Source: Patescibacteria group bacterium
GTDB lineage: Bacteria > Patescibacteriota > Patescibacteriia > JAHIZJ01
Direction: 5' to 3'
NCBI GenBank assembly: GCA_041661625.1
Contig: JBAZUB010000002.1
Span: 28,059-92,058, forward strand
DNA length: 64,000 bases
In this document: positions 21,505 to 63,979 of the stretch, one piece after another
How positions within the stretch are numbered: position 1 is the first letter of the stretch
Layout: each line of letters opens with the position of its first letter
The notes under the pieces: model-generated
The model's input: the letters and a program-made list of their open reading frames with translations, nothing else
What the model was told of the DNA's origin: nothing
Database searches by the model: none
Position numbers and translations under genes: made by a program

Positions 21505-21526
21505 TTCGGTCATTAAGCAAGAAACT

Positions 21527-24871: not shown

Positions 24872-24884
24872 TATAAGTTAGCGA

Positions 24885-27123: not shown

Positions 27124-27169
27124 ATAGAGTCATTATACACCCAAAACAACGGCTTGTTTTAACCATTAT

Positions 27170-27700: not shown

Positions 27701-27750
27701 AGACGTGTTATTAGTTATTTAGAGTTGGTTACATTTATCACGATAAACAA

Positions 27751-27884: not shown

Positions 27885-27993
27885 GTACCATGCCACGGTT
27901 TGCGCCGTGGTTTAGGCACCAAATTGTAAGTAATTCCCTAATATCGGAATTACCTATATAATTGTACTATATTTTGTCGACATTTTCAATAAT

Positions 27994-28821: not shown

Positions 28822-29153
28822 TTGAGTCTGTCTCACTTTCTGTGTGGCATTATAGGCAGCTGAAAAAACAGCTGTTTTATAATTGGCTCATTCGTGAAGG
28901 GGCATACCCGTAGTGCTGCTAGAACGATATAAAACAAATCTAGCAAAGGTTACGGGCTTGTACGTGAAGGACTGCTGACGGTGATGATAGAGGGCGCGCT
29001 CTGCAGAATCTAACGGCTCAATCTAACTATCAAATATGGTTGATAAAAAAGCCAGTTAGAACAAACAGGGCTGTCAGGTCAGGACTATAAATATATATCA
29101 CCAGAAGCAGGGAGCAGAGCGGGAAGGTCTAAATCTTAATATCCGGAGTCGCA

Positions 29154-29315
29154 ATGTCGACAAAGCAACAAAAAAGAGAAACCAGACAAGCGAGAATTCA
29201 TCTTAAGTATCACAAAATTCTTAAAGTCACGGCATTTAATCGAGGTATGACAATATCGCGCTTACTTGATGAAGTAATAGAGGATTATTTTGGAATTAAA
29301 GGAGAGAAGGAATAG
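29154..29315 (+). CDS. ribbon-helix-helix (Arc/CopG-like) small DNA-binding protein (53 aa)
   Basis: Hand-translated ORF MSTKQQKRETRQARIHLKYHKILKVTAFNRGMTISRLLDEVIEDYFGIKGEKE; beta-strand/helix/G-x-T-x-S/helix pattern of RHH fold; below ORF-track cutoff. Confidence 0.4.
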   Translation: MSTKQQKRETRQARIHLKYHKILKVTAFNRGMTISRLLDEVIEDYFGIKGEKE

Positions 29316-29582
29316 TGTGACCGGCAAAGATAGTCTGATAATAGAGCAGGATATTATTTGAATGATGGTTGGGGAGTGTATTCAAATAGCCATAAAATCT
29401 TCGAAGGAATGATTTCTAGTAATGCATACAAACAAGATCAGCCCCAAGTCAGTTATCAATACGCGGGCCGGGTAACTGACGATAGCGACTATTTGAATTA
29501 TGCATTTGATATGCTATTTGAAGAAATTATGAAGCAAAACAACTTATTGACAACTAATGACAATTAGGATTATACTGTAATC

Positions 29583-29765
29583 ATGGAATTTCTTACTAGA
29601 GATGAGGTAGCCAAATACTTCAGGGTGCACCCCCGTACGGTTATGCGCTGGCTCAAACAGGGCAGTCTTAGGGGCTACAAATTAGGCACAGGTAAAACCG
29701 CCCTACTTCGCATATCCAAGTCCGAGATTGAAAGATTTATGGAAAAATCTAAGATCACAAAATGA
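29583..29765 (+). CDS. excisionase-family helix-turn-helix DNA-binding protein
   Basis: 60 aa; LTRDEVAKYFRVHPRTVMRWLKQGSL matches HTH_17/Xis family; 4-nt overlap with recombinase start. Confidence 0.7.
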   Translation: MEFLTRDEVAKYFRVHPRTVMRWLKQGSLRGYKLGTGKTALLRISKSEIERFMEKSKITK

Positions 29766-37808: not shown

Positions 37809-39107
37809 TCAAGTGACTGCCAGATCAGCCACCGCTCCCGGCGCCGTACTGTCGCACTCGGCTGATTCCACCGGCCGCCCGGCGTCGGTACCGCAATTGT
37901 TATCATCATGGCAGGAGCGGGTTTGAACCGAATCGGCGCAAACGGACCAATCGGAACAATCCCAACTGGGAGTGCAGCCGGTTGTGCCAGCGAAGGTGAT
38001 GGGATAACCGGTGGTATTTACTACACCACTGGCATCAACAACATAGAGATAGGCCGGGTCGCCATTATTGAAAGTGCCTTGGTTAACCGTAAACTGGATT
38101 TGATCATCAACCCAGGTGGTGTGGGGGATTTGAATTTCACGGTGGGTGTTCGCTTCCCAGGTCGACGCGTTTCCGATTTCTATCCGAGCTTGAGTATAGT
38201 CAACATACATTTCGCTGACATACTGCCTCATTGTTGCTCCGCCATCAGTGCGAAAGAAGTGGCCGAACAGATACTCGTCAAATATTTGGCTGTCGATCAA
38301 TAGTGGACCATGTCCAACAGAAGTCGAAATTGACGCGATTCTTTCAAAATCCTGGTCGATCCAACTTACCGCATCGTAACCATTAACGGAGCCGGCATCC
38401 AAATATCTTTCGATTCTAACCCAGCGTCCAAGCGCAGAACTAAATATTGCAGATGCGTCAACACTGCCATGATCGGGGGCATACGGGGGCAAACATCTAC
38501 CATCTACATTACACATATAGAGATGTCCACCCCCCACATTTGGATAAATATCCACCCGGCATTGCGGAAAGAGATTTCCTTCGTTACGTGAAAAGTTTCC
38601 ATACAGTTTCGCATTATCACTTAAAAGCGCATTTCCGTTATAATCGTCCCGGAATACCCACTGGCTGGCGTAGAATCGGTGGATTGGTATATTTGTCAAA
38701 CCAATCGTCTGATTATAAAAACCGTCTGGAGGTAAGCCATAGCGCTGTTCGGCAACTTGTTCACCCGAGATGCGTTGTCGAAAAGTTGAATATCGGGGGT
38801 AGACGCCATTTGCTCCCACTGTTGTCCATCCTGTTTCTTCGGTTTGGCTTGCCAGCCTATCTCCTAATACCCCAGATTCAAAATCGTCGTATCGTAAGGG
38901 TTCCACCGGATCCTTTATCCCAAACCCGTTTCCATTAATCGTGATGCTTTGGCCATTCTGTATAGTGCCGGGGGCGTAGTTGATTTCTGGGATCGTATCA
39001 GCCATAGCCGGCACTGGGCGGTTAACTAAAAAAACCACACAAAATACAGCCAGAGCTTGGATAGCGATAAATACTTTATTGCGAATTATCGTACTGAAAA
39101 TTTTCAT
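37809..39107 (-). CDS. secreted hypothetical protein with Cys-rich C-terminus
   Basis: 432 aa; N-terminal signal peptide ...VPAMA; C-terminal multiple Cys. Confidence 0.5.
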   Translation of the reverse strand: MKIFSTIIRNKVFIAIQALAVFCVVFLVNRPVPAMADTIPEINYAPGTIQNGQSITINGNGFGIKDPVEPLRYDDFESGVLGDRLASQTEETGWTTVGANGVYPRYSTFRQRISGEQVAEQRYGLPPDGFYNQTIGLTNIPIHRFYASQWVFRDDYNGNALLSDNAKLYGNFSRNEGNLFPQCRVDIYPNVGGGHLYMCNVDGRCLPPYAPDHGSVDASAIFSSALGRWVRIERYLDAGSVNGYDAVSWIDQDFERIASISTSVGHGPLLIDSQIFDEYLFGHFFRTDGGATMRQYVSEMYVDYTQARIEIGNASTWEANTHREIQIPHTTWVDDQIQFTVNQGTFNNGDPAYLYVVDASGVVNTTGYPITFAGTTGCTPSWDCSDWSVCADSVQTRSCHDDNNCGTDAGRPVESAECDSTAPGAVADLAVT

Positions 39108-39178: not shown

Positions 39179-39856
39179 TCACTTGTTCAACAGCACCTTT
39201 CGGTATATAATCGTGGGCTTACTCCGCTTCTTGACCGCTTCCAACGTGATAATATTCAATCCCTCTTGCAAAGTTACGGTATCATGGAAAGCGCCGTTTT
39301 GGTCGCTGACCACCTCCCGGCCGTTTATCTGCAGCTGGGATTCTGGTTCGACGTGACCCGAAATATCAAGCACAGACTGGGTGGTGATTAGATTATCGGT
39401 CGGTGTATCGATCGTCAGCAAGGGCGGCGATATTGATTTATATATGACATAACCTAAATAGGCAAAACAAGCCAAGATCACCAGCGCGATAGCTAGCCGG
39501 CGTACGATTTTTGGCGTAATGGCCAAAGAGTGAGCCGAAATGCGCTGCGGTAACAAAGGGGTGTTGCTTGGCTGACGCTGGGATCGATCCACTTGGCGCT
39601 CCTTTTCATACAATCTAAAAACGGAGGCTGGGTTTAACTCCAGATACTCCGCGTAACTTTTTAAAAAATTACGGGCATACATTTCACCGGGCAGGCGGTC
39701 ATAGCGGCCCTCTTCCAATGCTGCGAGATATGATTTTTGAATCCCGGTGGCGCTTGAAGCATCAGCCAGCTCGATTCCTGCCTCGGTCCGAATGGCACGC
39801 AAACGCTCACCCAGCGTCTTGATGGAACGAATATCTTTGGCCGTAAATTCAGCCAT
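39179..39856 (-). CDS. RodZ-like membrane protein (N-terminal Xre-type HTH + single TM)
   Basis: 225 aa; HTH LGERLRAIRTEAGIELADASSATGIQKSYLAALEEG; TM LAIALVILACFAYLGYVIY. Confidence 0.55.
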   Translation of the reverse strand: MAEFTAKDIRSIKTLGERLRAIRTEAGIELADASSATGIQKSYLAALEEGRYDRLPGEMYARNFLKSYAEYLELNPASVFRLYEKERQVDRSQRQPSNTPLLPQRISAHSLAITPKIVRRLAIALVILACFAYLGYVIYKSISPPLLTIDTPTDNLITTQSVLDISGHVEPESQLQINGREVVSDQNGAFHDTVTLQEGLNIITLEAVKKRSKPTIIYRKVLLNK

Positions 39857-50611: not shown

Positions 50612-53600
50612 CTAACGCAATTCGTATTTCATGTAATAGGCCGATACGATCTTCTGCTTGATCAGACGCCCCGAAAGGTTAAGACAGGGCATATATGCGT
50701 AACACGTACCCCGATATTTATCACCACTGGCGCAGATATTAACATATGTATTATCAATACAAACCTGGCTTGGCGTGTCGCTATAGGGGTAATCCGGGTC
50801 TACCAGATAGGCCGCTCCGGTGCAGGATCCATTAAGATAGTAATTGGTGCCATACGCATCAGCCGAAACCTCGGTAGAATTGGGCGGACAAATCAATCCA
50901 CCGGCTGCATATGCCAAACTGCTAGAAATGGCGGAGCCGGTATCGTACCAGAATTTAACGCCGGTTGCCGTGTTGTCTCTGGTGGTGCCGGTGGTATAGA
51001 TATAACGCCCGAGGCAGACATCGGTACCGATTTCGCAGACACTTATCGAAACCGGCTTATCGCGACCTTGAAGTATCAGGTGGTTAGGAATACCGACCTT
51101 GCCGGAAAAAGTCGCTGCCCATCCGGTGCCGTCCTGTTGAGCGTACAGGGCCGAGCCCGACGCATTATTGGCATATATGCCCAACCCATCATTAGCATTG
51201 CCCGTGTTTGATGATCCAGCATTGATAGTTAACTTGGCATTGGGTCCGGTTTGTCCAATGCCGACCTTGCCGGTTCCGGTTATGTTTAGATCGCTTCGAC
51301 CCTGTGTTCCGAGCGACAGTATTTTATTTTCGTAGGAACCCACGTAGGCTTCTCCGGTGCCCGCTATGGAAATTTCCAGCCCGTCCCCGGCCGTTTGTCC
51401 GGTGTTCGTATTTTGCAGCAGCAGTACCGTGGGTGAGGCCGTGTCTTTGTACATATTCAGGAGAGACCTAGGAGTTGTTGTGCCCACGCCAACATTACCG
51501 CCCGTGAGAATAGTGATTCGGTCTTCGTTGCCACTACCATTTGCTAAGCGCAGGTCATTGCCGGCAGTGTACACACTGGCATAACCGGCCGCCGGCTTGA
51601 ACTTCAATAAACTGCCGGTGGTGCTAAACTGTATGTTGCCGGCAACGGTAAGTTTCTCGGTCAGGGTAGCGGTGCCAATGCCTACGTTGGTTCCATTATC
51701 AAATATTTGGGAGTCGCCCAGTGTGGTGCCGGCCGTGAATTTTGGTAAATAGTTGATTGTGCCCGAACCACCAATTCCGCCGCCACCCAGGTCGTCAGTT
51801 TCGCATGTCACCGACCCGTCAGCCGCGATTGCTCTAATCGAACTGCCGGCCGCGCAATCGGAAAAATATTTGGTCGTGCCATCCAGCTTGTATATGCTGC
51901 TCGCTATCGCTAAGCCGCCGCTATTGTTCAAGCGCAGATACTCGACACCGCCCTTGTAGAATCTAATCCCCTCCTTGCCTTCGATGGTCAGCGCTTGATT
52001 TGGCGTAAGATTGCTGGCGACTCCAATTAGACCGATTCGATCAGTTGTCATGCCGCCAATGATGAGCGCGTCAGCATCAGATCGCGCGCTGACTTGGCCC
52101 GAGAAGTACCCCGCATAACCAGCCGCGTTAGTCTGCTCACCGTAGATGGCCGCGTTAGCCGAATTGTTTTTTACCGATAGTTGCGTTGAATCACCAATAT
52201 TATTATGCCCAATTGCCACCTTGTCAGTCGCCTCATTGTTGGGATTGATAGTGTTGGCGCTGGCACCGGCTTCCCAGAGGCTAGACCCTCCAGCTATGGC
52301 CCAAGAGAGATTGCCCGAGCCATCGTTCTTTAAATAGGTACCTACACCACCCTGCGCATTTGGCCAAGAGTAGGTAATGTTTCGTAATTTAATGATATTG
52401 CCCGTGGAGTCGACCTGGAACTGGTGGCTGCTGCCGACCGTGAGAAGGGAAGTGGGGGCGGTATCACCAATGCCAACATTGCCGCCGGTCAAAATAGTGA
52501 TACGGTCTTCGTTGCCATTACCATTAGCTAGGCGCAGATCAGTGCCGGTGGTATATATGCTGGCGAAACCGGCGGTCGGTTTAAATTTCAGTAAACCGCC
52601 GGTTGTACTTAGTTGAATGTTGCCTGCTATGGTAAGCTTTTCAGTCATCGTGGTGGTTCCAATGCCAACATTGCCATTCATCAAGGCGGTTCGCCCCGAG
52701 AAGTAACCGGCGAACCCCGCGGCGTTCAGCTGTTCAGCATAAATTGCCGAATTAACAGAATTATTATAGGTGGCGAAAGCGGTCAGATCACCCTCGGTTG
52801 CTTGACCTACCCGGACCTTGTCATCGATCTCGGCCGGATAAACACTGTTAACGCCATTATGCGTCCAGAGAGTGTTGATCTGCAATCGATGATTCCCGCC
52901 CCCGACATTAATTTCCTGAGTCCAGATGCCGGTGCCGTTAACTAATTCGCTGCCGAGATATTCTGGAGTAGCATCTGCCGCGCTAGTCATGACCATGAAA
53001 GTGTCAGAACCAGCCGCACCGAAATCGTCGAATTCACAGGTTACGGTGCCATCAGCCGCGATGGCTCGGATAGAATTGCCAGCCGCACAGTCCGCAAAAA
53101 ACTTGGTTGTGCCGTTCAGCTTGTACAGTCCACCCGACATAGCCAAGTCGCCGTCGATACCCAGCTCTTGATTTGGGCTGACGGTATTGATACCCATCCG
53201 GCCTCCCATAACAACGGTTTTACCAGAAAAATATCCTGCATACCCATTGGCGTTAGCTTGTTCGAAATATCCTGCGGCATTCAATGAGCCGTTCTTCACG
53301 GATAATTGCGTCGAATCACCAATATTATTGTGCCCAATTGCCACCTTGTCGGTCGTCTCGTTAATCGGATTGATCGTGTTCGCGGTCGCGCCGGCTTCCC
53401 AGAGGCTGGCGCCCGCACCCTGATCGACGCCACAGAAAAGATTGCCATTGGCGTCGACGTCGACCGTGTTATTTCCGGTGCAGCCTGTGAGGCCGGGGAT
53501 TCTGATGGTGCCATCTCCGAGTATGCGCATTCGCTCAGCAAAAGCGCCGGTGTTCGTAGTGAAGAAAATCATGTCAAAGGTGTTGGATCCGAGTTGCCGC

Positions 53601-54349
53601 TCGACCGCAATCCGGCCGTTCGAACCATCCGGCCCCCAGGGGAATCCCGCCGAACCGCCAAAGCGCCAGTCGATACCCATGGCGTTCGAACCGTTGTTAT
53701 CCAAACTATCGATGGTAAACATAGACTTGTAGCCGACCACGCTCGCTCCAACGGCCAGTGGCGCGCTGGGATTGTTTGTGCCAATGCCGACATTCCAGCT
53801 CAAGTTGGTGGGATACAGATTCGCGCCAACCTGGGTCCAAAAACCGCCACCTCCGCCACCCCCGCAACCCAACGTTCCCTCGTTGTCCGTGCTGACACCG
53901 CCGCAACCGGCACCGCCATTGATCAGATTCTGCACGGATAGTTGGCCCACATTCGCTCCAGCCTGAGAGATTTTTACTTTACCTTGCAGTTCAATGTGAT
54001 CACCTATGTCGCCGGGTGAAACATAGAGCGTGTTGGCGCCGAAGTTAATATGCGGTTTGGCCAAGTCGGCGCCATTAAACCAAAAAATACCAGTATTGTC
54101 GTACGGTATGTACAGGCTACCGGATGAAACGCTCAGGAATTCCCCCGCCACGGTCAATGAGCCATTCTTTGTTTGAGGTGAAGACGAGGTATTGATCGGC
54201 GCGGCGACATTGCCCCCCGGCGGTGCACTTTCGGGAGGAGACCAAGCCGCTAGCGCTTGGCCAACCGGTGCCGATAATGCCACGCACAAGAGCACCGGCA
54301 TGACCATTAGGTACACCAGCTTTGAGCCACGGAATAGATTTGATTTCAT
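50612..54349 (-). CDS. giant secreted repeat protein (paralog A), phage tail-fibre-like repetitive modules
   Basis: 1245 aa; signal peptide MKSNLFRGSKLVYLMVMPVLLCVALSAPVGQALA; shared N-terminal module with B and D; Gly/Asn/Thr-rich repeats. Confidence 0.8.
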   Translation of the reverse strand: MKSNLFRGSKLVYLMVMPVLLCVALSAPVGQALAAWSPPESAPPGGNVAAPINTSSSPQTKNGSLTVAGEFLSVSSGSLYIPYDNTGIFWFNGADLAKPHINFGANTLYVSPGDIGDHIELQGKVKISQAGANVGQLSVQNLINGGAGCGGVSTDNEGTLGCGGGGGGGFWTQVGANLYPTNLSWNVGIGTNNPSAPLAVGASVVGYKSMFTIDSLDNNGSNAMGIDWRFGGSAGFPWGPDGSNGRIAVERQLGSNTFDMIFFTTNTGAFAERMRILGDGTIRIPGLTGCTGNNTVDVDANGNLFCGVDQGAGASLWEAGATANTINPINETTDKVAIGHNNIGDSTQLSVKNGSLNAAGYFEQANANGYAGYFSGKTVVMGGRMGINTVSPNQELGIDGDLAMSGGLYKLNGTTKFFADCAAGNSIRAIAADGTVTCEFDDFGAAGSDTFMVMTSAADATPEYLGSELVNGTGIWTQEINVGGGNHRLQINTLWTHNGVNSVYPAEIDDKVRVGQATEGDLTAFATYNNSVNSAIYAEQLNAAGFAGYFSGRTALMNGNVGIGTTTMTEKLTIAGNIQLSTTGGLLKFKPTAGFASIYTTGTDLRLANGNGNEDRITILTGGNVGIGDTAPTSLLTVGSSHQFQVDSTGNIIKLRNITYSWPNAQGGVGTYLKNDGSGNLSWAIAGGSSLWEAGASANTINPNNEATDKVAIGHNNIGDSTQLSVKNNSANAAIYGEQTNAAGYAGYFSGQVSARSDADALIIGGMTTDRIGLIGVASNLTPNQALTIEGKEGIRFYKGGVEYLRLNNSGGLAIASSIYKLDGTTKYFSDCAAGSSIRAIAADGSVTCETDDLGGGGIGGSGTINYLPKFTAGTTLGDSQIFDNGTNVGIGTATLTEKLTVAGNIQFSTTGSLLKFKPAAGYASVYTAGNDLRLANGSGNEDRITILTGGNVGVGTTTPRSLLNMYKDTASPTVLLLQNTNTGQTAGDGLEISIAGTGEAYVGSYENKILSLGTQGRSDLNITGTGKVGIGQTGPNAKLTINAGSSNTGNANDGLGIYANNASGSALYAQQDGTGWAATFSGKVGIPNHLILQGRDKPVSISVCEIGTDVCLGRYIYTTGTTRDNTATGVKFWYDTGSAISSSLAYAAGGLICPPNSTEVSADAYGTNYYLNGSCTGAAYLVDPDYPYSDTPSQVCIDNTYVNICASGDKYRGTCYAYMPCLNLSGRLIKQKIVSAYYMKYELR

Positions 54350-54387: not shown

Positions 54388-54511
54388 TAAATAATCCCGC
54401 CGACACAATGTGGTGCATGCAGCCATAACAAACCAGACCCATAAATGGGTCTGGTTATTCTATTTCGGTTTTAGTTTATTTCTGATTGTTGGCCTGGATG
54501 AATCAGGCTGG

Positions 54512-57500
54512 TTATTTGACCTTTTGCTCCAGTCGATCGAGGCGGGCGGTGAGTTCATCGATCGTATGGCTCTGCTTATCGATAATCTGACTCTGTTCCT
54601 GGATCGCCTTGACCATTGGGGCCATCAAGTCGTTGTAACGAAGATTTCTGGTCTTTTCGGCATCGTTATCTATCAATAGCATGTTGTATTCATCGGGCGA
54701 CACGAGCTTCTCAATATCCTGGGCGATGAAGCCGAAGTCAGTCTTGCCGTTGCCGTTCTTCATATTGTACTGCACCGGGCGCAAGCTGTTTATGAAACCC
54801 AGCCCGAGCGAACTATCCTTGATGTTCTCTTTCAACCTGACATCCGAAGGGGAGGAGAATGCAACCTGGATAGTGGCCGATGAAATACTGGCGTTACCAA
54901 TCCGGACTGAATTAGATGCGCTCGTGGTCGCCCCATATCCGATATTGATGGTGTTCTCCAGTGCTCCCGAGGTTGGCCCAGATCCGCGTCCAATGCCCAC
55001 ATTGAAATTTCCGGAGGTAACATTCTCGAGCGCCAGGTAGCCAGCGGACACATTGTATCCGCCGGATACATTGTTGAGCTGACTTCGAGTTCCGATCGCG
55101 ACGTTACCGGCGGCCGTCGTAAGGGCTGTTAGAGCTGATCTACCCACAGCTACGTTGGATGAACTAGTGGTAGATTTCAGTGCTTGAAAGCCAACCGCCG
55201 TGTTTTCGAATGTGTTGGTAATACTAGACAGGGCCTGATAACCGATGGCGGTTTGCTGCGTAGCAGTCGTAATGCTAGCGCCAGCGCCGTTGCCAAATAT
55301 AGTGTTACCATCAACATTGCCCGAACCGCGCCCAGCCCGCAGACCATTGATTGTGATATCACCGTCGAAATATCCGGCCCACTCACCTGCGCCGGTGTTC
55401 CCGCCTACCGAGCCATAGACGCCCGCGCAGGTGCCGGTGCAATTCGACCCCGCCACTAATTCGCCATAGACACCGCTGCCATTTACTCCGGAACCACTGT
55501 TGCCTTTGTAGCCGGATACTGCGTTGTAGTTCGAACTGGAATTGTTATAGGCTGAAACGGTGTTATTTACTGTGTAACCACTCGCGCCGGTTGCGGAAAC
55601 GGTTAACAACGACGCGGGACTAGTGTTGCCGATACCGACCTGACCACCGTTCAACATATACATCACATTGGTCGAAGAGTTATTCCGGATATTCCATCCA
55701 CCGCTGCCGAAATTGGTATACATGACATTATCAGTCCAGCGCGGCCACATCCAGGCATTCCATGCGCCGGCGCTGTCTTTGGCTTCCATAATTTGTCCAT
55801 TGCCTTGCCCGATCGTGCCGTTAACATGAAGAGTCCGCTCGGGAGTTATAGTATTAATGCCAACATTGCCGCCGGTTAAAATGGTAATACGGTCTTCGTT
55901 GCCACTGCCGTTAGCCAGTCGCAGGTCGGTGCCGGCGGTATATATACTGGCAAAACCGGCGGTTGGTTTTAGTTTCAGCTGGCCTCCCGCCGTGCTTAGT
56001 TGAACATTGCCCGCGATCGTAAGTTTTTCGGTAGGTGTTGTCATGCCGATGCCGACGCTACCCGCCCCAGTGATGCTTAGATCGTTTCGGCCCTGGGTGC
56101 CGAGAGATAAAGATCTATTTTCATATGAACCAACATAGGCGTCGCCCAACGCTGCGACCGAAACTTCCAGACCATCACCGTTGGTATTGCCAGTGGTCGC
56201 GTTTTGCACTAATAGAACCGAGCTCCCTCCAATTGGGTTATATAAATCCAGCCGGGAGGCAGGTGTGCTTGTGCCGATACCGACATTACCGGACGTATCA
56301 ACAAACAAGCCTTCATTACCGCCATCATTCGAAACCCAATAGCCGCTCATTCTTAAGTTGGCTCTGGCAATATGATCGCCCAGGTTATCTCCCACGGCTC
56401 CGCCATCGTCAGTCTCGCAAGTCACAGTACCGTCAGCAGCGATAGTTTTGATCGACAGATTTGCACCGCTGCAGGTATCGGCAAAAAACTTTGTTGCGCC
56501 GTCCAGTTTATAGATGCCGCCGGACATTGCCAGGTCGCCACTTAGTCCAAGTTCCTGGTTCGGTGTGGCGGTGCCAACGCCGAGGCGGCCGCCCATTACC
56601 ACGGTTTTGCCTGATAGGTAAGCGGCATATCCCGCGGCATTGGCTTGTTCAAAGTAGGCCGCGGAGTTAGCTGAATTATTTTTTACCGACAACTGGGTTA
56701 AATCGCCGATGTTGTTATGCCCAATCGCCACCTTATCCGTCGCCTCGTTTATCGGATTGATCGTGTTCGCGCTCGCGCCTACCTCCCACAAATTGGAACC
56801 GCCGGCGGGCAACCAGGTTAAATTGCCCGAGCCGTTATTGGTGAGCACAGTACCGGCTCCGCCTTGGCCAACAGGCCAAGAGTAGGTTACGTTTCTAATT
56901 CGGATGGGATTGCCATTAGAATCAACTTGAAACAGGTCGCCGCTACCGACCGTCAAAAGGGAGGCGGGGGTGGTATCGCTAATGCCAACATTGCCACCGG
57001 TTAAAATGGTAATACGGTCTTCGTTGCCATTGCCGTTAGCCAGCCGCAGGTCGGAACCAGTGGTATACAAACTGGCAAAACCAGCTGACGGTTTTAATTT
57101 CAACAAACTACCAACCGTACTGAACTGAATGTTACCAGCAATCGTTAGTTTTTCAGTCAGGGTAGTGGTCCCAATGCCGACATCGCCGTCCATCATCGCG
57201 GTTTTACCGGAAAAATAGGCGGCATAACCGGAGGCGTAGGCCTGCTCAAAGTAGGCCGCTGAGTTAACTGAACTATTTTTTACTGACAACTGCGTTGAAT
57301 CGCCGATAACATTGTGTCCAATGGCCACCTTATCGCTGGCTTCATTTACTGGATTGATCGTATTCGCGGTCACACCGACTTCCCAGAGACCACTGCCACC
57401 CGAGGACGCGATTTGGATCTGTTCATTGCCGCCGGCATTTAGTTTTGTCAGAGTAATATTCGAACCGGCCGATAATTTATCCTGGAGGTAACTAGCGATC

Positions 57501-58756
57501 GAATCCGTGGCCGATGCCTTAACCAATTCATCGGTACCGCCCAGGCCACCCGTTAGGTCAGTGGCGCAGATTAACTGCCCGTTGTTGTCCGCTTTTACCG
57601 TGTTGGCGCCAAGACAAGCGCCGCCAGCCAAGCTAGCTATTCGGGCGCTGCCCACGACGTCGAGTTGATAACTTGGATCGGTCGTTCCAATGCCGACGAA
57701 ACCGCCGAAGATAGAGAAGTCATAATTGTTCGACAGTATTAAGTCAAAATGTCGCGGGCTGTTTTTTGATCCCAAGCCAAGCTTGGCTGCGGTTAGGCCA
57801 TTGTTTAGCCACCAAATATATGGATTTTCGGCTATCGTCGGGTTTTCTTCATTAAGCATCAGCGTGTTTTGGTCGAAAGTCAGCGTGCCCCAGTTTGTGT
57901 CCCAAGGTTTGTTTTCAGAGACTCTGAAACCACCAGAAAAGTAGCCGGCATAACCGAATTGGCTATTCTGTTCTGCGTAGATGGTCGAATTGATGGAATT
58001 ATTAATAACCGACAACTGGGTGGAATCACCGATATTATTGTGCCCAATGGCCACCTTATCGGTCGTCTCGTTTATCGGGTTGATCGTGTTGGCACTCGCG
58101 CCAGCTTCCCACAGGCTAGAGCCACCACCCGAAGCGGCGATCTGAATCTGCTCGTTACCGCCCGGATTTATGGTGGTTAAAGTTACGTTCGCGCCGGCCG
58201 ACAATTTATTAATCAGATAATCCGCCGTCGTATCGAGGTTGGATATTTTTACCAATTTATCATCGCCGCCTGGTCCGACGCCCACCTCATCTGTCGTACA
58301 TACCAGTTTGCCAGCCAGGTCGGTTTTTAGAGTATTTACACCCGTGCATCCAGCCACATTCGGGAATGTTAGATCGCCCTGTAGTTCAATATGATTGTTA
58401 ATCAAGTCACCCGGAGAAATATATAGCGTATTGGTTAGAAAATTTATATGCGGTTGTTCCAAATGGGGCAGGTCGGTCTCGTCGGACCAAAAAATACCCT
58501 TTTCACTACCCGGAATGTACAAATCCCCAGTTGCTAATTTCAGAAAATTGCCGGCCACGGTCAGATCGCCCTGCTTGGTCTGGGGTGTGGCTGATGTATT
58601 GATCGGCGCGGCTACGTTGCCTCCCGGCGGGATGGTTGTCGGGACGGTCCAGGACGCGAACGCCTGCCCGGCAAGTGTAAATAGTGCCACGCATAATAAC
58701 ACCGGCATAGCCACTGGGTACATCAGCTTGAAGCCTCTAAATAGGTTGGGTTTCAT
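54512..58756 (-). CDS. giant secreted repeat protein (paralog B) with C-terminal intramolecular-chaperone (peptidase S74-like) domain of phage tailspike/tail-fibre proteins
   Basis: 1414 aa; signal peptide; C-terminus SSPSDVRLKENIKDS...GFIAQDIEKLVSPDEYN...coiled coil ELTARLDRLEQKVK. Confidence 0.8.
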   Translation of the reverse strand: MKPNLFRGFKLMYPVAMPVLLCVALFTLAGQAFASWTVPTTIPPGGNVAAPINTSATPQTKQGDLTVAGNFLKLATGDLYIPGSEKGIFWSDETDLPHLEQPHINFLTNTLYISPGDLINNHIELQGDLTFPNVAGCTGVNTLKTDLAGKLVCTTDEVGVGPGGDDKLVKISNLDTTADYLINKLSAGANVTLTTINPGGNEQIQIAASGGGSSLWEAGASANTINPINETTDKVAIGHNNIGDSTQLSVINNSINSTIYAEQNSQFGYAGYFSGGFRVSENKPWDTNWGTLTFDQNTLMLNEENPTIAENPYIWWLNNGLTAAKLGLGSKNSPRHFDLILSNNYDFSIFGGFVGIGTTDPSYQLDVVGSARIASLAGGACLGANTVKADNNGQLICATDLTGGLGGTDELVKASATDSIASYLQDKLSAGSNITLTKLNAGGNEQIQIASSGGSGLWEVGVTANTINPVNEASDKVAIGHNVIGDSTQLSVKNSSVNSAAYFEQAYASGYAAYFSGKTAMMDGDVGIGTTTLTEKLTIAGNIQFSTVGSLLKLKPSAGFASLYTTGSDLRLANGNGNEDRITILTGGNVGISDTTPASLLTVGSGDLFQVDSNGNPIRIRNVTYSWPVGQGGAGTVLTNNGSGNLTWLPAGGSNLWEVGASANTINPINEATDKVAIGHNNIGDLTQLSVKNNSANSAAYFEQANAAGYAAYLSGKTVVMGGRLGVGTATPNQELGLSGDLAMSGGIYKLDGATKFFADTCSGANLSIKTIAADGTVTCETDDGGAVGDNLGDHIARANLRMSGYWVSNDGGNEGLFVDTSGNVGIGTSTPASRLDLYNPIGGSSVLLVQNATTGNTNGDGLEVSVAALGDAYVGSYENRSLSLGTQGRNDLSITGAGSVGIGMTTPTEKLTIAGNVQLSTAGGQLKLKPTAGFASIYTAGTDLRLANGSGNEDRITILTGGNVGINTITPERTLHVNGTIGQGNGQIMEAKDSAGAWNAWMWPRWTDNVMYTNFGSGGWNIRNNSSTNVMYMLNGGQVGIGNTSPASLLTVSATGASGYTVNNTVSAYNNSSSNYNAVSGYKGNSGSGVNGSGVYGELVAGSNCTGTCAGVYGSVGGNTGAGEWAGYFDGDITINGLRAGRGSGNVDGNTIFGNGAGASITTATQQTAIGYQALSSITNTFENTAVGFQALKSTTSSSNVAVGRSALTALTTAAGNVAIGTRSQLNNVSGGYNVSAGYLALENVTSGNFNVGIGRGSGPTSGALENTINIGYGATTSASNSVRIGNASISSATIQVAFSSPSDVRLKENIKDSSLGLGFINSLRPVQYNMKNGNGKTDFGFIAQDIEKLVSPDEYNMLLIDNDAEKTRNLRYNDLMAPMVKAIQEQSQIIDKQSHTIDELTARLDRLEQKVK

Positions 58757-58890: not shown

Positions 58891-61800
58891 CTATGGATAC
58901 GGGAAAGCACCCATGTCGGTGCCGGCACCAAAGGCCGGGTTGCCCGTATTAATGCACGGTGATCCAGCCAACAGGTGATAGTCATTAGCGGCTGAGTTGA
59001 TAAACCTTGGATCGGCATTAATATTGTTTGACCCGAAGCCCGACCAGCCGCCTTGAATGTCGGAGTATTGAACCTTGGCACATAGCGGCCAGGGATTAGA
59101 CATCTGCCCGATGCTGGGACTAATTGGCGCGGTATTGGCCCAAACGATACTGCTGTCAAATACCGGATTTTGAGCCAAGCAGGCGCCGAGGTTAGTGGAA
59201 TTATTAACGAATACGCCGCCGCCTTCACCCGAGGTCGTGTTATACGCTACGGTGTTATTCCTGACATTTATCAGATTGCCCGGAGCATCGTACAATACAG
59301 TCAACAACATGCCTCCACCATAACCGTAAGTCGGTAAAATTGTGTTTCTGAACACTGCATTCTTTTCAATCAATGCGCCTCCCCCGCCGGCGAAAGCTAT
59401 TCCAGCTCCCCCAGATTCGGTCGGCCCGATAGTGTTATTTGAAATAGTATTATTCGAGATATTGGCATATCCGCCCCAGTGGTTGATACCGCCGCCGGAA
59501 TATTTTACAGCATTGTTGCTAATAGTATTGTTGGTAATTGTGGTCGATGTACTAGCGTTGCCACCCGACGAGATACCGCCACCATAGCTACCGCTGGTAC
59601 CGGAGGTATTCTGCGTGATGGTGTTGCCGGTAATAGTGAAAGTACCGCCGTTATATGTCGCCGAAACACCAGCGCCGGCACCGTCAGTAACGTTGCTGGT
59701 GACAGTATTGCCGGAAAAAGTTACGGTTCCGCCTATGTCCGCACCACCACCACCACCGCGATTACTTACGCCAGTTCCAAGGGCGGTATTTCCAGTCAGC
59801 GTATTATTGGAAACGGTTCCACTGCCGCGGAAGTAAATACCCCCGCCAAACTTACCGTCATTACTGGTGATTGAGTTACTACTGATATTAGCCGTGCCAG
59901 CCTGACAGTTAACGCCCCCACCGTTTGATCCGCTGCCGCCACCGTGGTGGTTGATGTTGTTATTTTGAATCGTGGCCGAAACGGTACCCGCCAGACACAT
60001 AATACCGGGGCCGCCAGCAGTACAGTTCATAGTGCCAGACATGCCATCTCTAATAGTGTTCCAGGTGATAGTCGCCGATCCGCCCCACACATAGACGCCG
60101 CGGCAATTGCCATAAATTAAGTTATCGTTAATCGTGGCATTGCTGCCTGTTTCAACTTTTACACCCGCGGTCACGCAATTGTATATTTCATTATTTCGGA
60201 CCGTGGCGGTAGCGTTGCCATTGACGGTCACACAGTATGGTTCGACCGGATCGCCCCAGGGGTTATTGAACCCCACGATATAGAAACCCTCCAGAATCGA
60301 ACCGGTGCCGCCGTTGAAAACAACATGCGGAATTTCATTATTCTGTGGAATCATGTCCTGACTTTTTAGAGTAATTGATTTGCCCTGGAAGTCGATTATA
60401 CCCTCATTCCAGAAATACCAGCCACCAGTAGAGTCAGTCACAAGTACATTACCAGCGACCGTGTCAGTGTCGTTGATGGCGGCGGTAATGGTGGCATAGT
60501 TTTCCACTTCGGTCATATTGGCGGCGCTGATGTAGCGTCTGACCCGGCGCGGACAGGCGCCACAGTCGGCAGCACAGCTCGAACACGTTTCTGGCGCTAT
60601 GCACTGTCCATTACCGCAACAGCTGCCGCAATCTCCCGGACAGGTCGAACAGGTTTCACCATTGTTGCACACGGTGTCACCACAGAAGCACGCGCCACAA
60701 TCTCCCGGACAAGAAGTACAATTCTCGCCAAAATTACAGCTACCATCCCCACAGCAGTTGCCGCAATCAGCCGAGCAATTCGAACAATTTTCCGGTGCCA
60801 CGCAGGCGCCGTTGCCGCAACAAGCACCACAATCGGCTGGACAGGTTGAACAGGTTTCACCGTTATTACATTGTGTGTCGGGACAATTGGGGACATCGGC
60901 AATAGTAATGGTAATCGATTCCGTATCGGTGGCGCTGGCCGTATCGGTAGCGGTGAAGACAATATTGGGATAACTGCCCGATTGGGTATAGCTTGGAGTC
61001 CAAGTAAAGGTAGCCTCAAACTTTCCCAGTCCGGCGTTATAGGAAGTGTTGCTTAGGTTTGAACCAGATGGTTTATTAGCTACGCTGATGGTCACCGTGT
61101 CACCCGGTGAGTCTGGGTCGGCCGCACGCACCACAAATGACATAGCGACTCCTTCAGAGCCGTTTTTATTGCCGATCGGATCCAGTACGGGAGGTTGGTT
61201 GGTGTTGGCAATAGTGATAGTAATTGATTCCGTATCGGTGGCGCTGGCCGTATCGGTAGCGGTGAAGACAATATTGGGATAACTGCCCGATTGGGTATAG
61301 CTTGGAGTCCATGTGAAGGTAGCCTCAAATTTACCGGTGCCAGCGTTGTAGGTCGTGTTGCCCAAGCTGGAGCCAGATGGCAGATTAGCGGCGGTTATTG
61401 TAACACTATCGCCGGTAGCTTGATCTGGGTCGCTCGCGCTGATCGTGAAAGACATGGCCGTGCCCTCGGCGCCGTTCTTGTTTCCGATCGGATCGAGCAC
61501 GGGGGGTTGGTTCACCGGAGCGGCACCGAACTTCTTCAATGCTTTAATGCCATTATTGGTGTTTATTCTGACCCTAGTGGCGTTAGGATCGCCCGGCGGT
61601 ACCAGCACTATACTGTATGTTGAGCCATTTTGTTTGACGCGTAATTCGGAAGTTGTCGGACCGGCGGGCACGCAGGCAAAATGAAGTGTTTGGATTCCGT
61701 CATATACTCGGAGGCCGCAGTCGGTTTCGCCGGGAAGTGGGGTGGTTCCCCAAGCCAAGTCAAAAGCTGCCCCATTGTTGGTAAACACGGAGCTACCCAG

Positions 61801-62826
61801 ACCCGTCCAAGTGGTTCCGTTCGTTGAAGTCGCGAAAGTGTTGGTGACATTATTTCCAGCCGCAATCCACTTACCATCGCCCCAGGCCACAGATGTACCA
61901 CCACCACCGGGGGGACTAAAAATATCAAGACCACCCAACCCAACCCAATTGATGCCATCTATGGATGTGGCAATAACGTTGATATCCGTGCCGACATTAT
62001 ATGTATGCGCAACCGCAACCCACCTGCTGCCATTCCAGGCCAAGTCCATACCACCATAACCATCAGCATTAGTAAATATTGAATTGCCCAAACCTGTCCA
62101 ATTAATACCGTCATAAGAGTACGCGATGGTGTTGGCTCCATATCCTACCGCTACCCACATTGTTTCATTCCAGGCAATACCAACGCCGGTATTAGAAAAT
62201 ATTCCTTTACCCAAGCCAGTCCATGAGATGCCGTCATATGAATAGGCGATAGTATTGTTGCCTCCTCCCACCGCAACCCACATTGTTCCGTTCCAAGCAA
62301 CGTCTAAACCGCTCTCGCCTGGATTAGAACCGAATATATTTACACCACCACGGCCAACCCAATTAATACCATCGGCTGATGTAGCAAAATTATTAGGAGC
62401 ATTTCCTACTGCTACCCATTTGTTATCGCCCCAAGCCACGCCATATCCACCGCCTTGTTGGGTCCATTGATTATAATCAAAAATCGAATCACCTAGTCCC
62501 GTCCAGTCGACACCATTCGTAGAATGGGCAACGGTGTTTTCACCCACCCCTACTGCGACCCACATGCTTCCGTTCCAGGCTACACCTTGACCCCATTGGG
62601 AAAATATTGCTTTGCCTTGGCTGGTCCAATTAGTGCCATCCAGGGAAGTGGCCATGGTGGCGTCGTCGCCACGTCCGACTGCTATCCATCGGCCAGCGGC
62701 CACCACTGGTTGGTTCATCATTCCAATTCCTGTCAGCGAGAAAACAAATACCGCGCAGAGGCGGATCAGCCACCATTGGCGACTCTGATGTGCGAGTATA
62801 GTTGTTAGCTCGGACTTCGGGTTCAT
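58891..62826 (-). CDS. giant mosaic surface protein (paralog C): WxAVG beta-propeller-like repeats, tandem Ig/cadherin-like domains, Cys-rich repeats, parallel beta-helix repeats
   Basis: 1311 aa; N-terminal hydrophobic anchor/signal; ~9 repeats of W(V/I)AVG..DG.NWTG; two near-identical PPVLDPIGNKNG..DPD domains; NGETCSTCPxDCG repeats; NNTISNN/GGG beta-helix-like repeats. Confidence 0.8.
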   Translation of the reverse strand: MNPKSELTTILAHQSRQWWLIRLCAVFVFSLTGIGMMNQPVVAAGRWIAVGRGDDATMATSLDGTNWTSQGKAIFSQWGQGVAWNGSMWVAVGVGENTVAHSTNGVDWTGLGDSIFDYNQWTQQGGGYGVAWGDNKWVAVGNAPNNFATSADGINWVGRGGVNIFGSNPGESGLDVAWNGTMWVAVGGGNNTIAYSYDGISWTGLGKGIFSNTGVGIAWNETMWVAVGYGANTIAYSYDGINWTGLGNSIFTNADGYGGMDLAWNGSRWVAVAHTYNVGTDINVIATSIDGINWVGLGGLDIFSPPGGGGTSVAWGDGKWIAAGNNVTNTFATSTNGTTWTGLGSSVFTNNGAAFDLAWGTTPLPGETDCGLRVYDGIQTLHFACVPAGPTTSELRVKQNGSTYSIVLVPPGDPNATRVRINTNNGIKALKKFGAAPVNQPPVLDPIGNKNGAEGTAMSFTISASDPDQATGDSVTITAANLPSGSSLGNTTYNAGTGKFEATFTWTPSYTQSGSYPNIVFTATDTASATDTESITITIANTNQPPVLDPIGNKNGSEGVAMSFVVRAADPDSPGDTVTISVANKPSGSNLSNTSYNAGLGKFEATFTWTPSYTQSGSYPNIVFTATDTASATDTESITITIADVPNCPDTQCNNGETCSTCPADCGACCGNGACVAPENCSNCSADCGNCCGDGSCNFGENCTSCPGDCGACFCGDTVCNNGETCSTCPGDCGSCCGNGQCIAPETCSSCAADCGACPRRVRRYISAANMTEVENYATITAAINDTDTVAGNVLVTDSTGGWYFWNEGIIDFQGKSITLKSQDMIPQNNEIPHVVFNGGTGSILEGFYIVGFNNPWGDPVEPYCVTVNGNATATVRNNEIYNCVTAGVKVETGSNATINDNLIYGNCRGVYVWGGSATITWNTIRDGMSGTMNCTAGGPGIMCLAGTVSATIQNNNINHHGGGSGSNGGGVNCQAGTANISSNSITSNDGKFGGGIYFRGSGTVSNNTLTGNTALGTGVSNRGGGGGADIGGTVTFSGNTVTSNVTDGAGAGVSATYNGGTFTITGNTITQNTSGTSGSYGGGISSGGNASTSTTITNNTISNNAVKYSGGGINHWGGYANISNNTISNNTIGPTESGGAGIAFAGGGGALIEKNAVFRNTILPTYGYGGGMLLTVLYDAPGNLINVRNNTVAYNTTSGEGGGVFVNNSTNLGACLAQNPVFDSSIVWANTAPISPSIGQMSNPWPLCAKVQYSDIQGGWSGFGSNNINADPRFINSAANDYHLLAGSPCINTGNPAFGAGTDMGAFPYP
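60899..61520. repeat. tandem direct repeat, 2 x ~310 bp (first ~105 bp of each copy nearly identical) inside gene C
   Basis: gcaatagt(a/g)at(g/a)gtaat(c/t)gattccgtatcggtggcgctggccgtatcggtagcggtgaagacaatattgggataactgcccgattgggtatagcttggagtcca present at 60899 and 61209. Confidence 0.8.
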
Positions 62827-62842: not shown

Positions 62843-63979
62843 TTAGTTCAATACCAGCCACATCTGTCCGACCGCGGGACTGGCGGGATCGCCTTGGGCC
62901 GCGGTGCGAACCTGAATAACTAAGCCGTCAGTGGCCTTTATCGTACCACCCTGAACTTCGAGTTTAGTGCCGGCTGCCGGGTTCTCCACCCCAATACCCA
63001 CCGCGCCATTCATGATGACAGTTTTGCCGGAAAAGTATCCGGCAAAACCCTGGCCGCCGGTGATCTCGGCGTATAGAGTCTTGTCATTGGCAGCCGTGGC
63101 CGCATTGGTCACTGACAAACGAGTATTGTCACTAATGTCCAGTCGGCCAATTGCCACCTTATCAGTAGTTTCGTTAGTTGGCGCAATGGTGTCTGCAGTC
63201 GAACCAGCCTTCCAAATGCCACCGCCAGCCGCAACAACAGCCCAGGAAAGATTGCCGCTGCCGTCGTTCTTTAAGTATGCGTCATTATCCGCCCCTAGGT
63301 TATTATTCGGCCAATTGTAAGTGACGCCCTTGATCCGGATGATATTACCCGTGGCGTCGACCATGAATTTGTCGCCATTGCCGACGGTGAGAGGCGATAG
63401 AGGGGTGATATCGCCAATGCCAACATTCGCGGTTGGGTTAGTCGGGTAAAGATCGTTCACGTCCTGGGTCCAGAAGCCACCACCAGCCGCGCCGCCGCAG
63501 GTTATTGTGCCATCGGCATCGGTGCTAAGACCGCCGCAACTGACCATATTGGGATTCTGGATACTTAGCGTGGCTAGATTAGTCGGACTGGCCGCGGTGA
63601 TCTTTACGGCGCCTTGCAGCTCAATATGATCGCCCGTTTCGCCAGGGGAAAGATATAGTGAGTTAGCTCCAAAGTTTATGTGGGGCTTAGCCGTGTCTGA
63701 CACGTTGGACCAAAAAACACCCCGGTCCGCCGTGGAAATAAAGAGATCGCCAGTAGCTACCCGGAGATAATTACCAGCTATAGTCAGGTCGCCATTTTTG
63801 GTTTGAGGGGTGGCCGAAGTATTGATTGGCGCAGCCACATTGCCGCCCGGCGGAGCAGTGTCAGGAGCGGTCCAGGATGCCAGCGCCCGGCCGGCCAGAG
63901 TTGAAAATGCCAAGCATAAAAGCACTGGCATAACCGTAAGGTACATCAGCTTTGAGCCTCGAAATAGATTTGATTTCAT
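62843..63979 (-). CDS. secreted protein (paralog D) sharing N-terminal module of A and B, short form (378 aa)
   Basis: MKSNLFRGSKLMYLTVMPVLLCLAFSTLAGRALA signal peptide and first ~120 aa ~75% identical to A; 16-nt gap to gene C suggests co-transcription. Confidence 0.7.
   Translation of the reverse strand: MKSNLFRGSKLMYLTVMPVLLCLAFSTLAGRALASWTAPDTAPPGGNVAAPINTSATPQTKNGDLTIAGNYLRVATGDLFISTADRGVFWSNVSDTAKPHINFGANSLYLSPGETGDHIELQGAVKITAASPTNLATLSIQNPNMVSCGGLSTDADGTITCGGAAGGGFWTQDVNDLYPTNPTANVGIGDITPLSPLTVGNGDKFMVDATGNIIRIKGVTYNWPNNNLGADNDAYLKNDGSGNLSWAVVAAGGGIWKAGSTADTIAPTNETTDKVAIGRLDISDNTRLSVTNAATAANDKTLYAEITGGQGFAGYFSGKTVIMNGAVGIGVENPAAGTKLEVQGGTIKATDGLVIQVRTAAQGDPASPAVGQMWLVLN

Follow-up and report, generated by a model that had tools for sequence, protein, structure and literature searches.

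The window, a stretch of 64,000 nucleotides from a Patescibacteria group bacterium, holds a gene, here called B, for a secreted fibre protein, together with two paralogues (C and A) and a further neighbouring protein (Table 1). Gene B lies on the minus strand; the original prediction for this DNA had not stated a strand. Its product is NCBI MFA6198268.1, labelled "tail fiber domain-containing protein" (Patescibacteria group bacterium MAG), and identical copies of the protein are present on a 268-kb ENA contig and on a 311-kb contig. By inspection of the sequence, B starts with a Sec-type signal peptide that has three basic residues within its first 12 and an AxA motif, and residues 11–34 form the sole hydrophobic stretch in the protein. 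This is followed by a conserved N-terminal domain, a long shaft, a YadA-like head and a Peptidase_S74 domain; cysteine pairs are found at residues 137/153, 381/397, 762/780, and 1106/1110. Downstream of the stop codon is a perfect hairpin, whose weak minus-strand T-tail makes it no more than suggestive of a terminator.

Paralogue C is 44% identical to B over ~1000 residues and has five capping-loop motifs in its shaft, and no sequence relatives of its cysteine-rich tip were found in the PDB. At the DNA level, repeats between B and C share only 62–78% identity, which gives no indication that cassettes were exchanged recently. The original prediction noted that the neighbours of B appear to lack its C-terminal domain, and indeed neither Pfam nor a six-frame scan of the window with a local HMM detected S74 in the 1245-, 1311-, and 378-residue proteins. 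NCBIfam gave no matches for any of these three proteins or for B.

Table 1. Features of the gene B locus (window positions; residue numbers refer to protein B)
Feature	Position	Strand	Basis or remark
Gene B, 1414-aa secreted fibre protein	54512–58756	minus	ORF list and translation
Sec-type signal peptide, residues 1–34	58655–58756	minus	Sequence inspection; predicted cleavage A-F-A/S35
Conserved N-terminal domain, residues 35 to ~130	58367–58654	minus	Common to paralogues C and A and relatives; candidate cell-surface docking module (function inferred)
Shaft	55310–58366	minus	Internal repeats, eight capping-loop motifs (V-G-I-G-x-x-x-P-x-x-x-L), paired cysteines
YadA-like head repeats, residues ~1150–1290	54887–55309	minus	N-T-A-x-G-x-x-A-L type; predicted mature tip after chaperone release
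Predicted autocleavage site, P1303/S1304	54845–54850	minus	Alignment with solved chaperones and Ser conservation
S1304, predicted nucleophile	54845–54847	minus	
K1309, predicted general base of Ser-Lys dyad (S-D-x-x-x-K)	54830–54832	minus	Invariant alignment column
Peptidase_S74/intramolecular chaperone auto-processing domain, S1304–K1414, 111 aa	54515–54847	minus	
C-terminal long helix, residues 1374–1413	54518–54637	minus	Predicted trimeric coiled coil
Stop codon of gene B	54512–54514	minus	
Hairpin, perfect 11-bp stem, 56 nt downstream of B stop	54431–54456	.	Terminator scan and sequence; possible intrinsic terminator between B and paralogue C
Paralogue C, 1245 aa	50612–54349	minus	Same signal peptide, N-domain and shaft; different cysteine-rich C-terminal tip, without S74
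Paralogue A, 378 aa	62843–63979	minus	Same signal peptide and N-domain; short shaft, without S74
Neighbouring protein, 1311 aa	58891–62826		Without S74

The S74-type chaperone domain claimed for the C-terminus of B in the original prediction is confirmed by profile searches. Pfam PF13884 (Peptidase_S74) significantly matches residues 1304–1351 (E 9.9e-12; 45.4 bits, above the curated cut-off of 22), the domain scores 140 bits with a local HMM built from 41 homologues, and PHROG families of tail spikes and tail fibres cover residues 1138–1412 with E-values down to 3e-31. The interval originally assigned to it, 54512–54900, stands in part: 54515–54847 is the cleavable domain, but 54848–54900 falls in the preceding YadA-like head. 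The domain sits at the extreme C-terminus behind a beta-roll fibre segment and has a long helix at its end. Minus-strand positions 54830–54859 of the window encode FSSPSDVRLK, in which S1304-D-V-R-L-K1309 fits S-D-x-x-x-K at the start of the domain. The Ser/Lys motif, to which the original prediction had pointed as S-D-x-R-x-K-x-N-I, is intact in B, and in the alignment of the 41 homologues S, D, and R are each conserved in at least 90% of the sequences and K is invariant. SDxxxK is the catalytic motif of S74 proteins (PMC10769870).

A phmmer search of PDB sequences with the last 302 residues of B as a single sequence gave no matches; a profile of homologues was needed. This profile matched a tail fibre (8jov, E 1.7e-11) and the MyRF ICA domain (7dc3, E 1.5e-6), as well as a long tail fibre tip (6f45) and the phi29 gp12 chaperone (3gud). 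In the alignment, S1304 corresponds to residue 1 (SDERHK) of 3gud, the phi29 gp12 chaperone chain after its release, and its motif to the SD-R-K motifs in 8jov and 6f45. The modelled fold of the domain, a monomer, resembles solved intramolecular chaperones, with weak Foldseek E-values (best 0.011) for this monomer model against intertwined trimeric chaperones. The similarity to phage intramolecular chaperones that had been proposed is thus seen in both the profile matches and the modelled fold. EndoNF, T5 pb1, phi29 gp12, and MyRF self-cleave. Judged from its sequence, B ends in a folding domain of the self-cleaving type that phage tail fibres carry; family membership and homology suggest that B would also trimerise and cleave itself.

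Cellular, signal-peptide-bearing, S74-terminated proteins are known from Bdellovibrio bacteriovorus, in which they form a subgroup (e.g., Bd3182) of the mosaic adhesive trimer (MAT) fibres (Caulton et al., 2024, Nat Microbiol, PMC10769870). MAT proteins consist of a signal peptide, a conserved beta-rich N-domain of ~130 residues, a shaft with capping loops (V-G-G/N-pi-x-x-P-x-x-x-L), and an S74 or non-S74 tip (PMC10769870). B resembles them in several respects: a chromosomal gene encodes a protein of ~1000 residues or longer with a signal peptide; a conserved domain lies directly behind this peptide (~130 residues in MAT and ~125 in B, a likeness of position and size); the long shaft carries V-G-I/N-G-x-x-x-P-x-x-x-L capping loops; the C-terminal S74 domain carries SDxxxK; and paralogues of the same genome end with S74 (B) or without it (C and A), as in the S74/NS74 split. 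B contains eight capping-loop motifs, whereas 0.03 are expected by shuffling. The B sequence alone matches Bd2133 (8OND, E 0.008), and a profile of its shaft, searched against the whole PDB, matches only MAT structures (Bd2133, Bd1334, Bd3182, and Bd2439), with E-values of 3e-22 (8OND), 4.5e-11 (8OML), 3.2e-10 (8OJN), 6.8e-7 (8OL4), and 5.8e-6 (8ON4). There are also differences. B comes from Patescibacteria, a lineage outside the phyla of Table S3 of Caulton et al.; a YadA-like beta-roll head precedes its cleavage site, whereas Bd3182 has a triple beta-helix; its N-terminal module bears a motif typical of Patescibacteria; and its organism is probably monoderm-like, so that there would be no outer membrane to cross.

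Given this architecture, B is probably a chromosomal, Sec-exported, MAT-like, self-processing trimeric fibre of Patescibacteria (CPR) that functions as an adhesin. The signal peptide would be cut off after A34, and the mature N-terminus, which carries the lineage-specific module, would be the part by which the fibre docks on to the cell surface. Three chains would assemble from the C-terminus, whereby the S74 chaperone and the terminal coiled-coil helix would nucleate and register the trimer of YadA-like head and capping-loop shaft. After folding, the S1304/K1309 dyad would cut between P1303 and S1304 and the chaperone would be released, leaving a mature fibre of ~1270 residues with the YadA-like head as its newly exposed distal tip. 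We infer both the surface docking and the adhesive role, the latter most plausibly in the recognition of host or partner cells, as would be expected of an episymbiotic lineage.

Other known systems share parts of this design. Phage fibres and tailspikes (K1F endoNF, 3GW6; T5 pb1, 4UW8; phi29 gp12, 3GUD) likewise carry S74 with the Ser-Lys motif at the extreme C-terminus, and the domain is expected to play the same role in B, namely trimer folding followed by self-release. Unlike them, B has a signal peptide, a non-viral N-terminus and a cellular context, lacks a virion-attachment domain, and is only 29–41% identical to phage proteins. The MyRF ICA domain (7DC3) belongs to a eukaryotic membrane-bound transcription factor, in which cleavage frees a DNA-binding trimer and no extracellular fibre is formed. 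The likeness of B to trimeric autotransporter adhesins (YadA, BoaA, EibD, and CbpF) is confined to the head repeats; by Pfam, B has no C-terminal YadA-type beta-barrel anchor and has the S74 chaperone there instead, and no outer membrane is known for its organism. A type Vc autotransporter was rejected because this membrane anchor is missing.

A processed trimeric fibre could also have another role, such as an envelope structure, attachment to a matrix or surface, or a glycan-binding or -degrading spike acting on the cell's own environment. Envelope genes abound around B, which would fit such a role: they encode LytR_cpsA_psr, a Mur ligase, an S8 peptidase that is secreted, and a surface protein of the beta-helix/He_PIG type. 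YadA-type heads have many ligands, collagen and other matrix proteins among them. However, no glycosidase or lyase domain was detected in B, its paralogues with swapped tips suggest diversified binding specificity, as in MATs, and a preprint describes all cultivated Patescibacteria as obligate episymbionts (bioRxiv 10.1101/2024.11.25.624915). We therefore consider a role other than partner recognition rather unlikely.

Less likely still, at roughly the level of an outside chance, is that the S74-like domain is a permanent C-terminal trimerisation or capping module that does not cleave itself and is kept in the mature fibre. Several "S74-like" tips of other bacteria are listed in Table S3 of Caulton et al. 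(PMC10769870), and the residue before the serine of B is a proline (P1303), which is unusual at a scissile bond. Against this, both dyad residues are intact, S-D-x-R-x-K-x-x-I is conserved in the 41 homologues, and a homologue in a related MAG has SDLRLK at the dyad motif. Moreover, in the literature consulted, all motif-bearing S74 proteins that have been assayed self-cleave: a C-terminal fragment of Bd3182 cuts at S782, and S782A abolishes cleavage (PMC10769870).

The genomic setting bears on whether the fibre protein is cellular at all. In principle, B could come from a prophage, as an intact or decayed tail fibre or tailspike, or could serve a nearby tailocin or extracellular contractile injection system as its fibre. 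Many phages share its C-terminal module, in which YadA-like repeats are joined to S74, as seen in the PHROG tail families, in 158 phage records with a tail-spike or tail-fibre annotation that match it at 29–37% identity, and in at least 484 IMG/VR loci in viral contigs; a large serine recombinase is encoded ~23 kb from B (29762–31513). However, the 268-kb contig is a Patescibacteria contig on which B lies beside rpoB and rpoC, and these two genes together with FtsK, RecA, EF-P, and YchF stand between B and the recombinase; the Mur ligase and LytR are likewise cellular neighbours. Phage structural, packaging, and lysis genes were absent from the 20 scanned ORFs at 14–42 kb and from the genes called within ~10 kb upstream of B, and there are no tRNA genes in the window. 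A low-GC stretch at 14–30 kb contains sugar-modification and defence-type genes without phage structural genes, and the GC content of gene B is similar to that of rpoBC. The nearest relatives of B are cellular (45–52% identity), whereas viral ones reach at most 41%. A related MAG (rpoB 82% identical) encodes a 1620-residue S74-terminated homologue with the same N-terminus at the same site, directly upstream of rpoB. Finally, a Sec signal peptide is absent from virion and contractile-system fibres, which are assembled in the cytoplasm, whereas B has one along with its paired cysteines, and none of 2.9 million viral contigs contains the N-terminal module of B, in contrast to the C-terminal one. 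On the basis of context, signal peptide, and synteny, a prophage origin was rejected as highly improbable; gene B is chromosomal and cellular, not phage. The original prediction had likewise described a cellular, signal-peptide-bearing protein outside any prophage, and its interpretation of B is supported; none of the contrary findings it had named was encountered where these could be checked computationally.

The N-terminal domain (~125 residues) is conserved in B, C, A, and their relatives, and is opened in B by the motif W-T-x-P-T-x-x-P-P-G-G-N-V-A-A-P-I-N-T-S-x-x-x-Q-T-K-x-G-x-L-T (residues 36–66; 58559–58651). When the N-terminal profile was run in a word-indexed search, it found just six proteins, and it was an exhaustive HMMER scan that revealed the family, with 6122 representative proteins (clusters at 50% identity), in which the motif nearly always lies at residues 20–40. 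The named members of the ~6,100 clusters with W-T-x-P-T-x-x-P-P-G-G-N-V-x-A-P-I-N are all from Patescibacteria, except for a 135-residue partial sequence labelled Micrarchaeota, and none of them is viral. Ten of 156 proteins with the N-terminal module end in S74. Some Bacteroidota-type relatives (PF26696, precomputed) carry a different N-terminus. An AF2 model of the domain from a nine-sequence alignment was unreliable (pLDDT 55.8; pTM 0.26). In the literature searched, we found no description of the N-terminal motif and nothing relevant on CPR in combination with the chaperone of endosialidase. Tentatively, and with considerable doubt, Patescibacteria may possess a lineage-specific superfamily of Sec-exported fibres that is very large (~6,100 clusters), in which the N-terminal motif would be a dedicated surface-docking or sorting signal and the tips, including phage-derived YadA-head/S74 modules, would be swappable; such fibres would be the CPR counterpart of MAT fibres and a main determinant of which host cells these bacteria attach to.

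As originally stated, the finding is of modest significance: the domain was called correctly, but both concept and annotation existed before. The novelty it implied was overstated in view of the Bdellovibrio fibres described in 2024 (PMC10769870), the at least 552 loci in bacterial species genomes that carry the C-terminal module, and the existing NCBI label. Cellular S74 fibres were already known from the predator Bdellovibrio, and B adds another of that sort, as a candidate host-attachment protein. The host-binding determinants of Patescibacteria are described as largely unknown in the preprint cited above, with type IV pili as the main characterised factor (bioRxiv 10.1101/2024.11.25.624915). 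If B does represent a MAT-like, self-processing family, it would provide concrete candidates for determinants of host specificity, with swappable tips and a conserved chromosomal site beside rpoBC, that are open to cleavage, trimerisation, and binding tests without culturing the organism. B also widens the known occurrence of this phage chaperone in cellular proteins to a further major lineage of bacteria, and the conserved N-terminal module may be a lineage-specific surface-anchoring signal.

The original prediction placed a phage-type S74 chaperone (Peptidase_S74, an intramolecular chaperone or ICA domain) at the C-terminus of B, the 1414-aa secreted fibre protein, over the interval 54512-54900, which is the 3' end of the minus-strand ORF. 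The peptide quoted there, FSSPSDVRLK, is the translation of window:54830-54859(-). The Pfam model PF13884 (Peptidase_S74, 'chaperone of endosialidase') matched residues 1304-1351 of B with 45.4 bits (E 9.9e-12; gathering cut-off, 22 bits), and PHROG tail-spike and tail-fibre families matched residues 1138-1412 with E-values down to 3.3e-31, confirming a real S74 domain far beyond chance. The domain proper is shorter than first proposed: it starts at S1304, so that the portion of the interval upstream of this residue falls in the repeat region before the domain. A sequence search with the last 220 aa of B returned 51 relatives, nearly all with PF13884; in a 41-sequence alignment, the Ser, Asp, and Arg of the S-D-x-R-x-K motif were at least 90% conserved and the Lys invariant, and the blocks G-F-I-A-Q and V-K-A-x-Q-E were conserved as well. 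The C-terminus of B as a single sequence found no match among PDB sequences. The 41-sequence profile matched a phage tail fibre (8jov, E 1.7e-11), a long-tail-fibre tip (6f45, E 8.4e-11), the MyRF ICA domain (7dc3, E 1.5e-6), and the released phi29 gp12 chaperone (3gud, E 3e-4), whose first residue is the Ser aligned to S1304; its upstream half matched the YadA head 1p9h (E 3e-4). AlphaFold2 modelled the 220 C-terminal residues confidently (pLDDT 87) as regularly spaced short strands, a small alpha/beta unit, and a 40-residue terminal helix. Taken together, the alignment motif, the PDB profile matches, and the model indicate that the C-terminus of B consists of a YadA-like head (approximately residues 1150-1290) and, after it, a canonical S74 intramolecular chaperone whose Ser/Lys dyad is intact, and that B displays every defining sequence and model feature of S74 proteins.

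Features of the fibre locus and its surroundings (window coordinates)
Feature	Position	Strand	Remarks
B	54512-58756	minus	1414 aa; motif residues S1304, D1305, R1307, K1309
S74 domain proper of B	54515-54847	minus	S1304-K1414
N-module start in B	58550-58654	minus	residues 35-69, directly after signal peptide; W-T-x-P-T-x-x-P-P-G-G-N-V-x-A-P-I-N-x-S-x-x-x-Q-T-K-x-G-x-L-T
C	50612-54349	minus	1245 aa; paralogue sharing the N-domain
N-module in C	54143-54247	minus	
C-terminal ~230 aa of C	50612-51300	minus	Cys-rich tip
A	62843-63979	minus	378 aa; paralogue sharing the N-domain
N-module in A	63773-63877	minus	
Hairpin in B-C spacer	54431-54456		11-bp stem
1311-aa secreted protein	58891-62826	minus	
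DNA repeat D6	60898-61413		84% identical
Gene pair with the 432-aa protein	37809-39107; 39179-39856	minus	
Low-GC stretch	14000-31500		
Large serine recombinase	29762-31513		borders low-GC stretch

At its other end, B carries what by inspection is a Sec-type signal peptide: three basic residues, a hydrophobic stretch at residues 11-34 that is the only one in B, and an A-F-A|S site. Its cysteines are closely paired, as would be expected of an extracellular protein. The following N-domain (residues 35 to ~130) shares ~61% identity with the neighbouring ORFs C and A and was modelled poorly by AlphaFold2 (pLDDT 56). The shaft contains internal repeats and eight copies of V-G-I-G-x-x-x-P-x-x-x-L (0.03 expected in shuffles; five in C and one in A), the 'capping loop' consensus derived for MyRF and the mosaic adhesive trimer (MAT) fibres of Bdellovibrio (Caulton et al. 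2024, PMC10769870). Searched alone against all PDB sequences, B found a single match, Bd2133 (8OND, E 0.008), and a shaft profile (B 800-1060 plus relatives) found MAT structures only: 8OND (3e-22), 8OML (4.5e-11), 8OJN (3.2e-10), 8OL4 (6.8e-7), and 8ON4 (5.8e-6), the entries for Bd2133, Bd1334, Bd3182, and Bd2439 (data-availability statement, PMC10769870). B and the MAT fibres have in common a signal peptide, a homologous shaft with capping loops, and paralogues that end with or without S74. The class of trimeric autotransporters was rejected because B has no anchor.

These features support the interpretation of B as a putative self-processing, phage-fibre-like adhesin. B would be exported through Sec, with removal of the signal peptide, and its chains would assemble into a trimer beginning at the C-terminus, where the S74 chaperone and its coiled-coil helix would act as the nucleus. 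The S1304/K1309 dyad would then cut the P1303|S1304 bond and free a 111-residue chaperone, leaving the YadA-like head as the exposed distal tip of a long fibre held on the cell by the conserved N-terminal module. Ser/Lys chemistry also operates in K1F endosialidase, T5 pb1, phi29 gp12, and MyRF. Bd3182 offers a direct precedent: a fragment from its C-terminus cuts itself at S782, and the S782A mutation blocks the cut (PMC10769870). A structural or environmental role, not directed at a host, is unlikely. Less probable still is that the S74-like domain merely caps the fibre and never cleaves, given a dyad that is intact in B and lies in a conserved motif. We favour the self-processing adhesin.

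The paralogue C has a Cys-rich tip in place of the S74 module, with eight Cys within its last ~140 aa, no Pfam match, and no sequence relative in the PDB; by analogy with the non-S74 MAT tips, it may be a new receptor-binding domain. As originally predicted, the neighbours of B lack S74: a six-frame HMM scan of the window found it in B only, and the N-module in A, B, and C only. Relatives retrieved with full-length B likewise have both S74 and non-S74 ends behind one N-domain. Two adjacent N-module genes, encoding proteins of 360-500 aa, far shorter than B, were seen on a Saccharibacteria MAG contig (L013, 5344-7738; one S74 end) and a Paceibacterota MAG contig (L003, 3-5503; both S74-ended). 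Tandem S74 fibre genes are common, with 111 S74 ORFs across 80 genome loci. The 162-nt B-C spacer holds a perfect palindromic hairpin (AACCAGACCCAT-AAAT/ATTT-GGGTCTGGTT). After it, on the minus strand, a TATAAT-like box precedes C, an arrangement that suggests separate transcription of B and C.

The gene order on the minus strand is LytR_cpsA_psr, S8 peptidase, Mur ligase, A, a 1311-aa beta-helix/He_PIG protein, B, C, rpoB, and rpoC, and then FtsK, an HTH protein, a secreted 432-aa protein, RecA, EF-P, methyltransferases, and YchF; no tRNA genes were found in the window. The GC content around B (0.51-0.52) is similar to that of rpoBC. An identical protein occurs on 268-kb (ENA) and 311-kb contigs, and a related MAG (rpoB 82% identical) encodes directly upstream of rpoB a protein of 1620 aa that shares the N-terminus of B and ends in S74 (SDLRLK). 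The 1311-aa protein, another large surface protein of the cluster, comprises N-terminal W-rich repeats (...W-V-A-V-G...), two He_PIG Ig-like domains (the duplicated unit being DNA repeat D6), a Cys-rich C-G-x-C repeat run, and a right-handed beta-helix (NosD/Beta_helix). The 432-aa protein has a signal peptide, a Cys-rich C-terminus, and no Pfam match; the HTH_25 protein beside it has a Glucodextran_B-like domain at its C-terminus, a domain also recorded for the S8 peptidase. A low-GC stretch (0.38-0.43 vs ~0.51 elsewhere) contains sugar-modification genes (a DegT aminotransferase fused to NUDIX, an epimerase, an NTP transferase), a SocA/Panacea antitoxin-like gene, a SIR2_2 protein, and two unknown proteins (484 and 612 aa), and may be an integrated island carrying defence genes. 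The stretch (14-30 kb) yielded no phage structural genes, and core genes separate it and its recombinase from B, in keeping with the earlier claim that B lies outside any recognisable prophage.

Cellular genomes carry the C-terminal module very often, and viruses just as often. In species-representative genomes, a single peptide pattern picked out at least 552 loci that were confirmed, mostly in Bacteroidota; four are from Patescibacteria (an unclassified MAG, Paceibacterota, Wolfebacteria, and Saccharibacteria). The top cellular matches are 45-52% identical, compared with 29-41% for at least 484 IMG/VR loci and at most 37% for 158 GenBank phage records. The N-module found no relatives in 2.9 million viral contigs, and among 160 fetched loci it occurred in those of Patescibacteria only, in divergent form in the Wolfebacteria locus. 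That B is a prophage or injection-system fibre, for all its tail-fibre matches, is hardly credible, since neither its genomic context nor its N-terminus fits. An exhaustive HMMER scan of 1.84 billion representatives with the N-module profile returned 6122 proteins at E<=1e-3, 131 at E<=1e-10, and 18 at E<=1e-30. W-x-x-P-x-x-x-P-P-x-G-N-x-x-x-P-x-N stands at residues 20-40 in 123 of the 141 matches listed, right after a hydrophobic stretch with a small-x-small end. These proteins span 64-2700 aa, ~10 of 156 are S74-ended, and their organism names, where a source gives one, are Patescibacteria group, Paceibacterota, Parcubacteria, and Nomurabacteria, the sole named exception being a 135-aa partial cluster member labelled Micrarchaeota. 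No Pfam or NCBIfam model matches the N-module and our literature search found no description of its motif; one possible role is that of a lineage-specific signal for surface docking or sorting.

The novelty of B itself is modest, since NCBI already annotates it (MFA6198268.1, 'MAG: tail fiber domain-containing protein [Patescibacteria group bacterium]') and the concept was already in place for Bdellovibrio in 2024. The MAT-like proteins tabulated by Caulton et al. (PMC10769870, Table S3) come from Oligoflexia, the PVC group, Alphaproteobacteria, the FCB group, and Omnitrophica, with none from Patescibacteria; a literature search linking CPR (Patescibacteria) with the S74 domain found no paper. 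The main value lies in the MAT-like family organisation beside rpoBC and in a widespread, apparently undescribed Patescibacteria N-module. Little is known of what determines host binding in episymbiotic Patescibacteria (bioRxiv 10.1101/2024.11.25.624915), though very large surface proteins are already suspected of a part in it (PMC13059738), and an S74/MAT-like fibre is now placed in a lineage where such proteins may matter.
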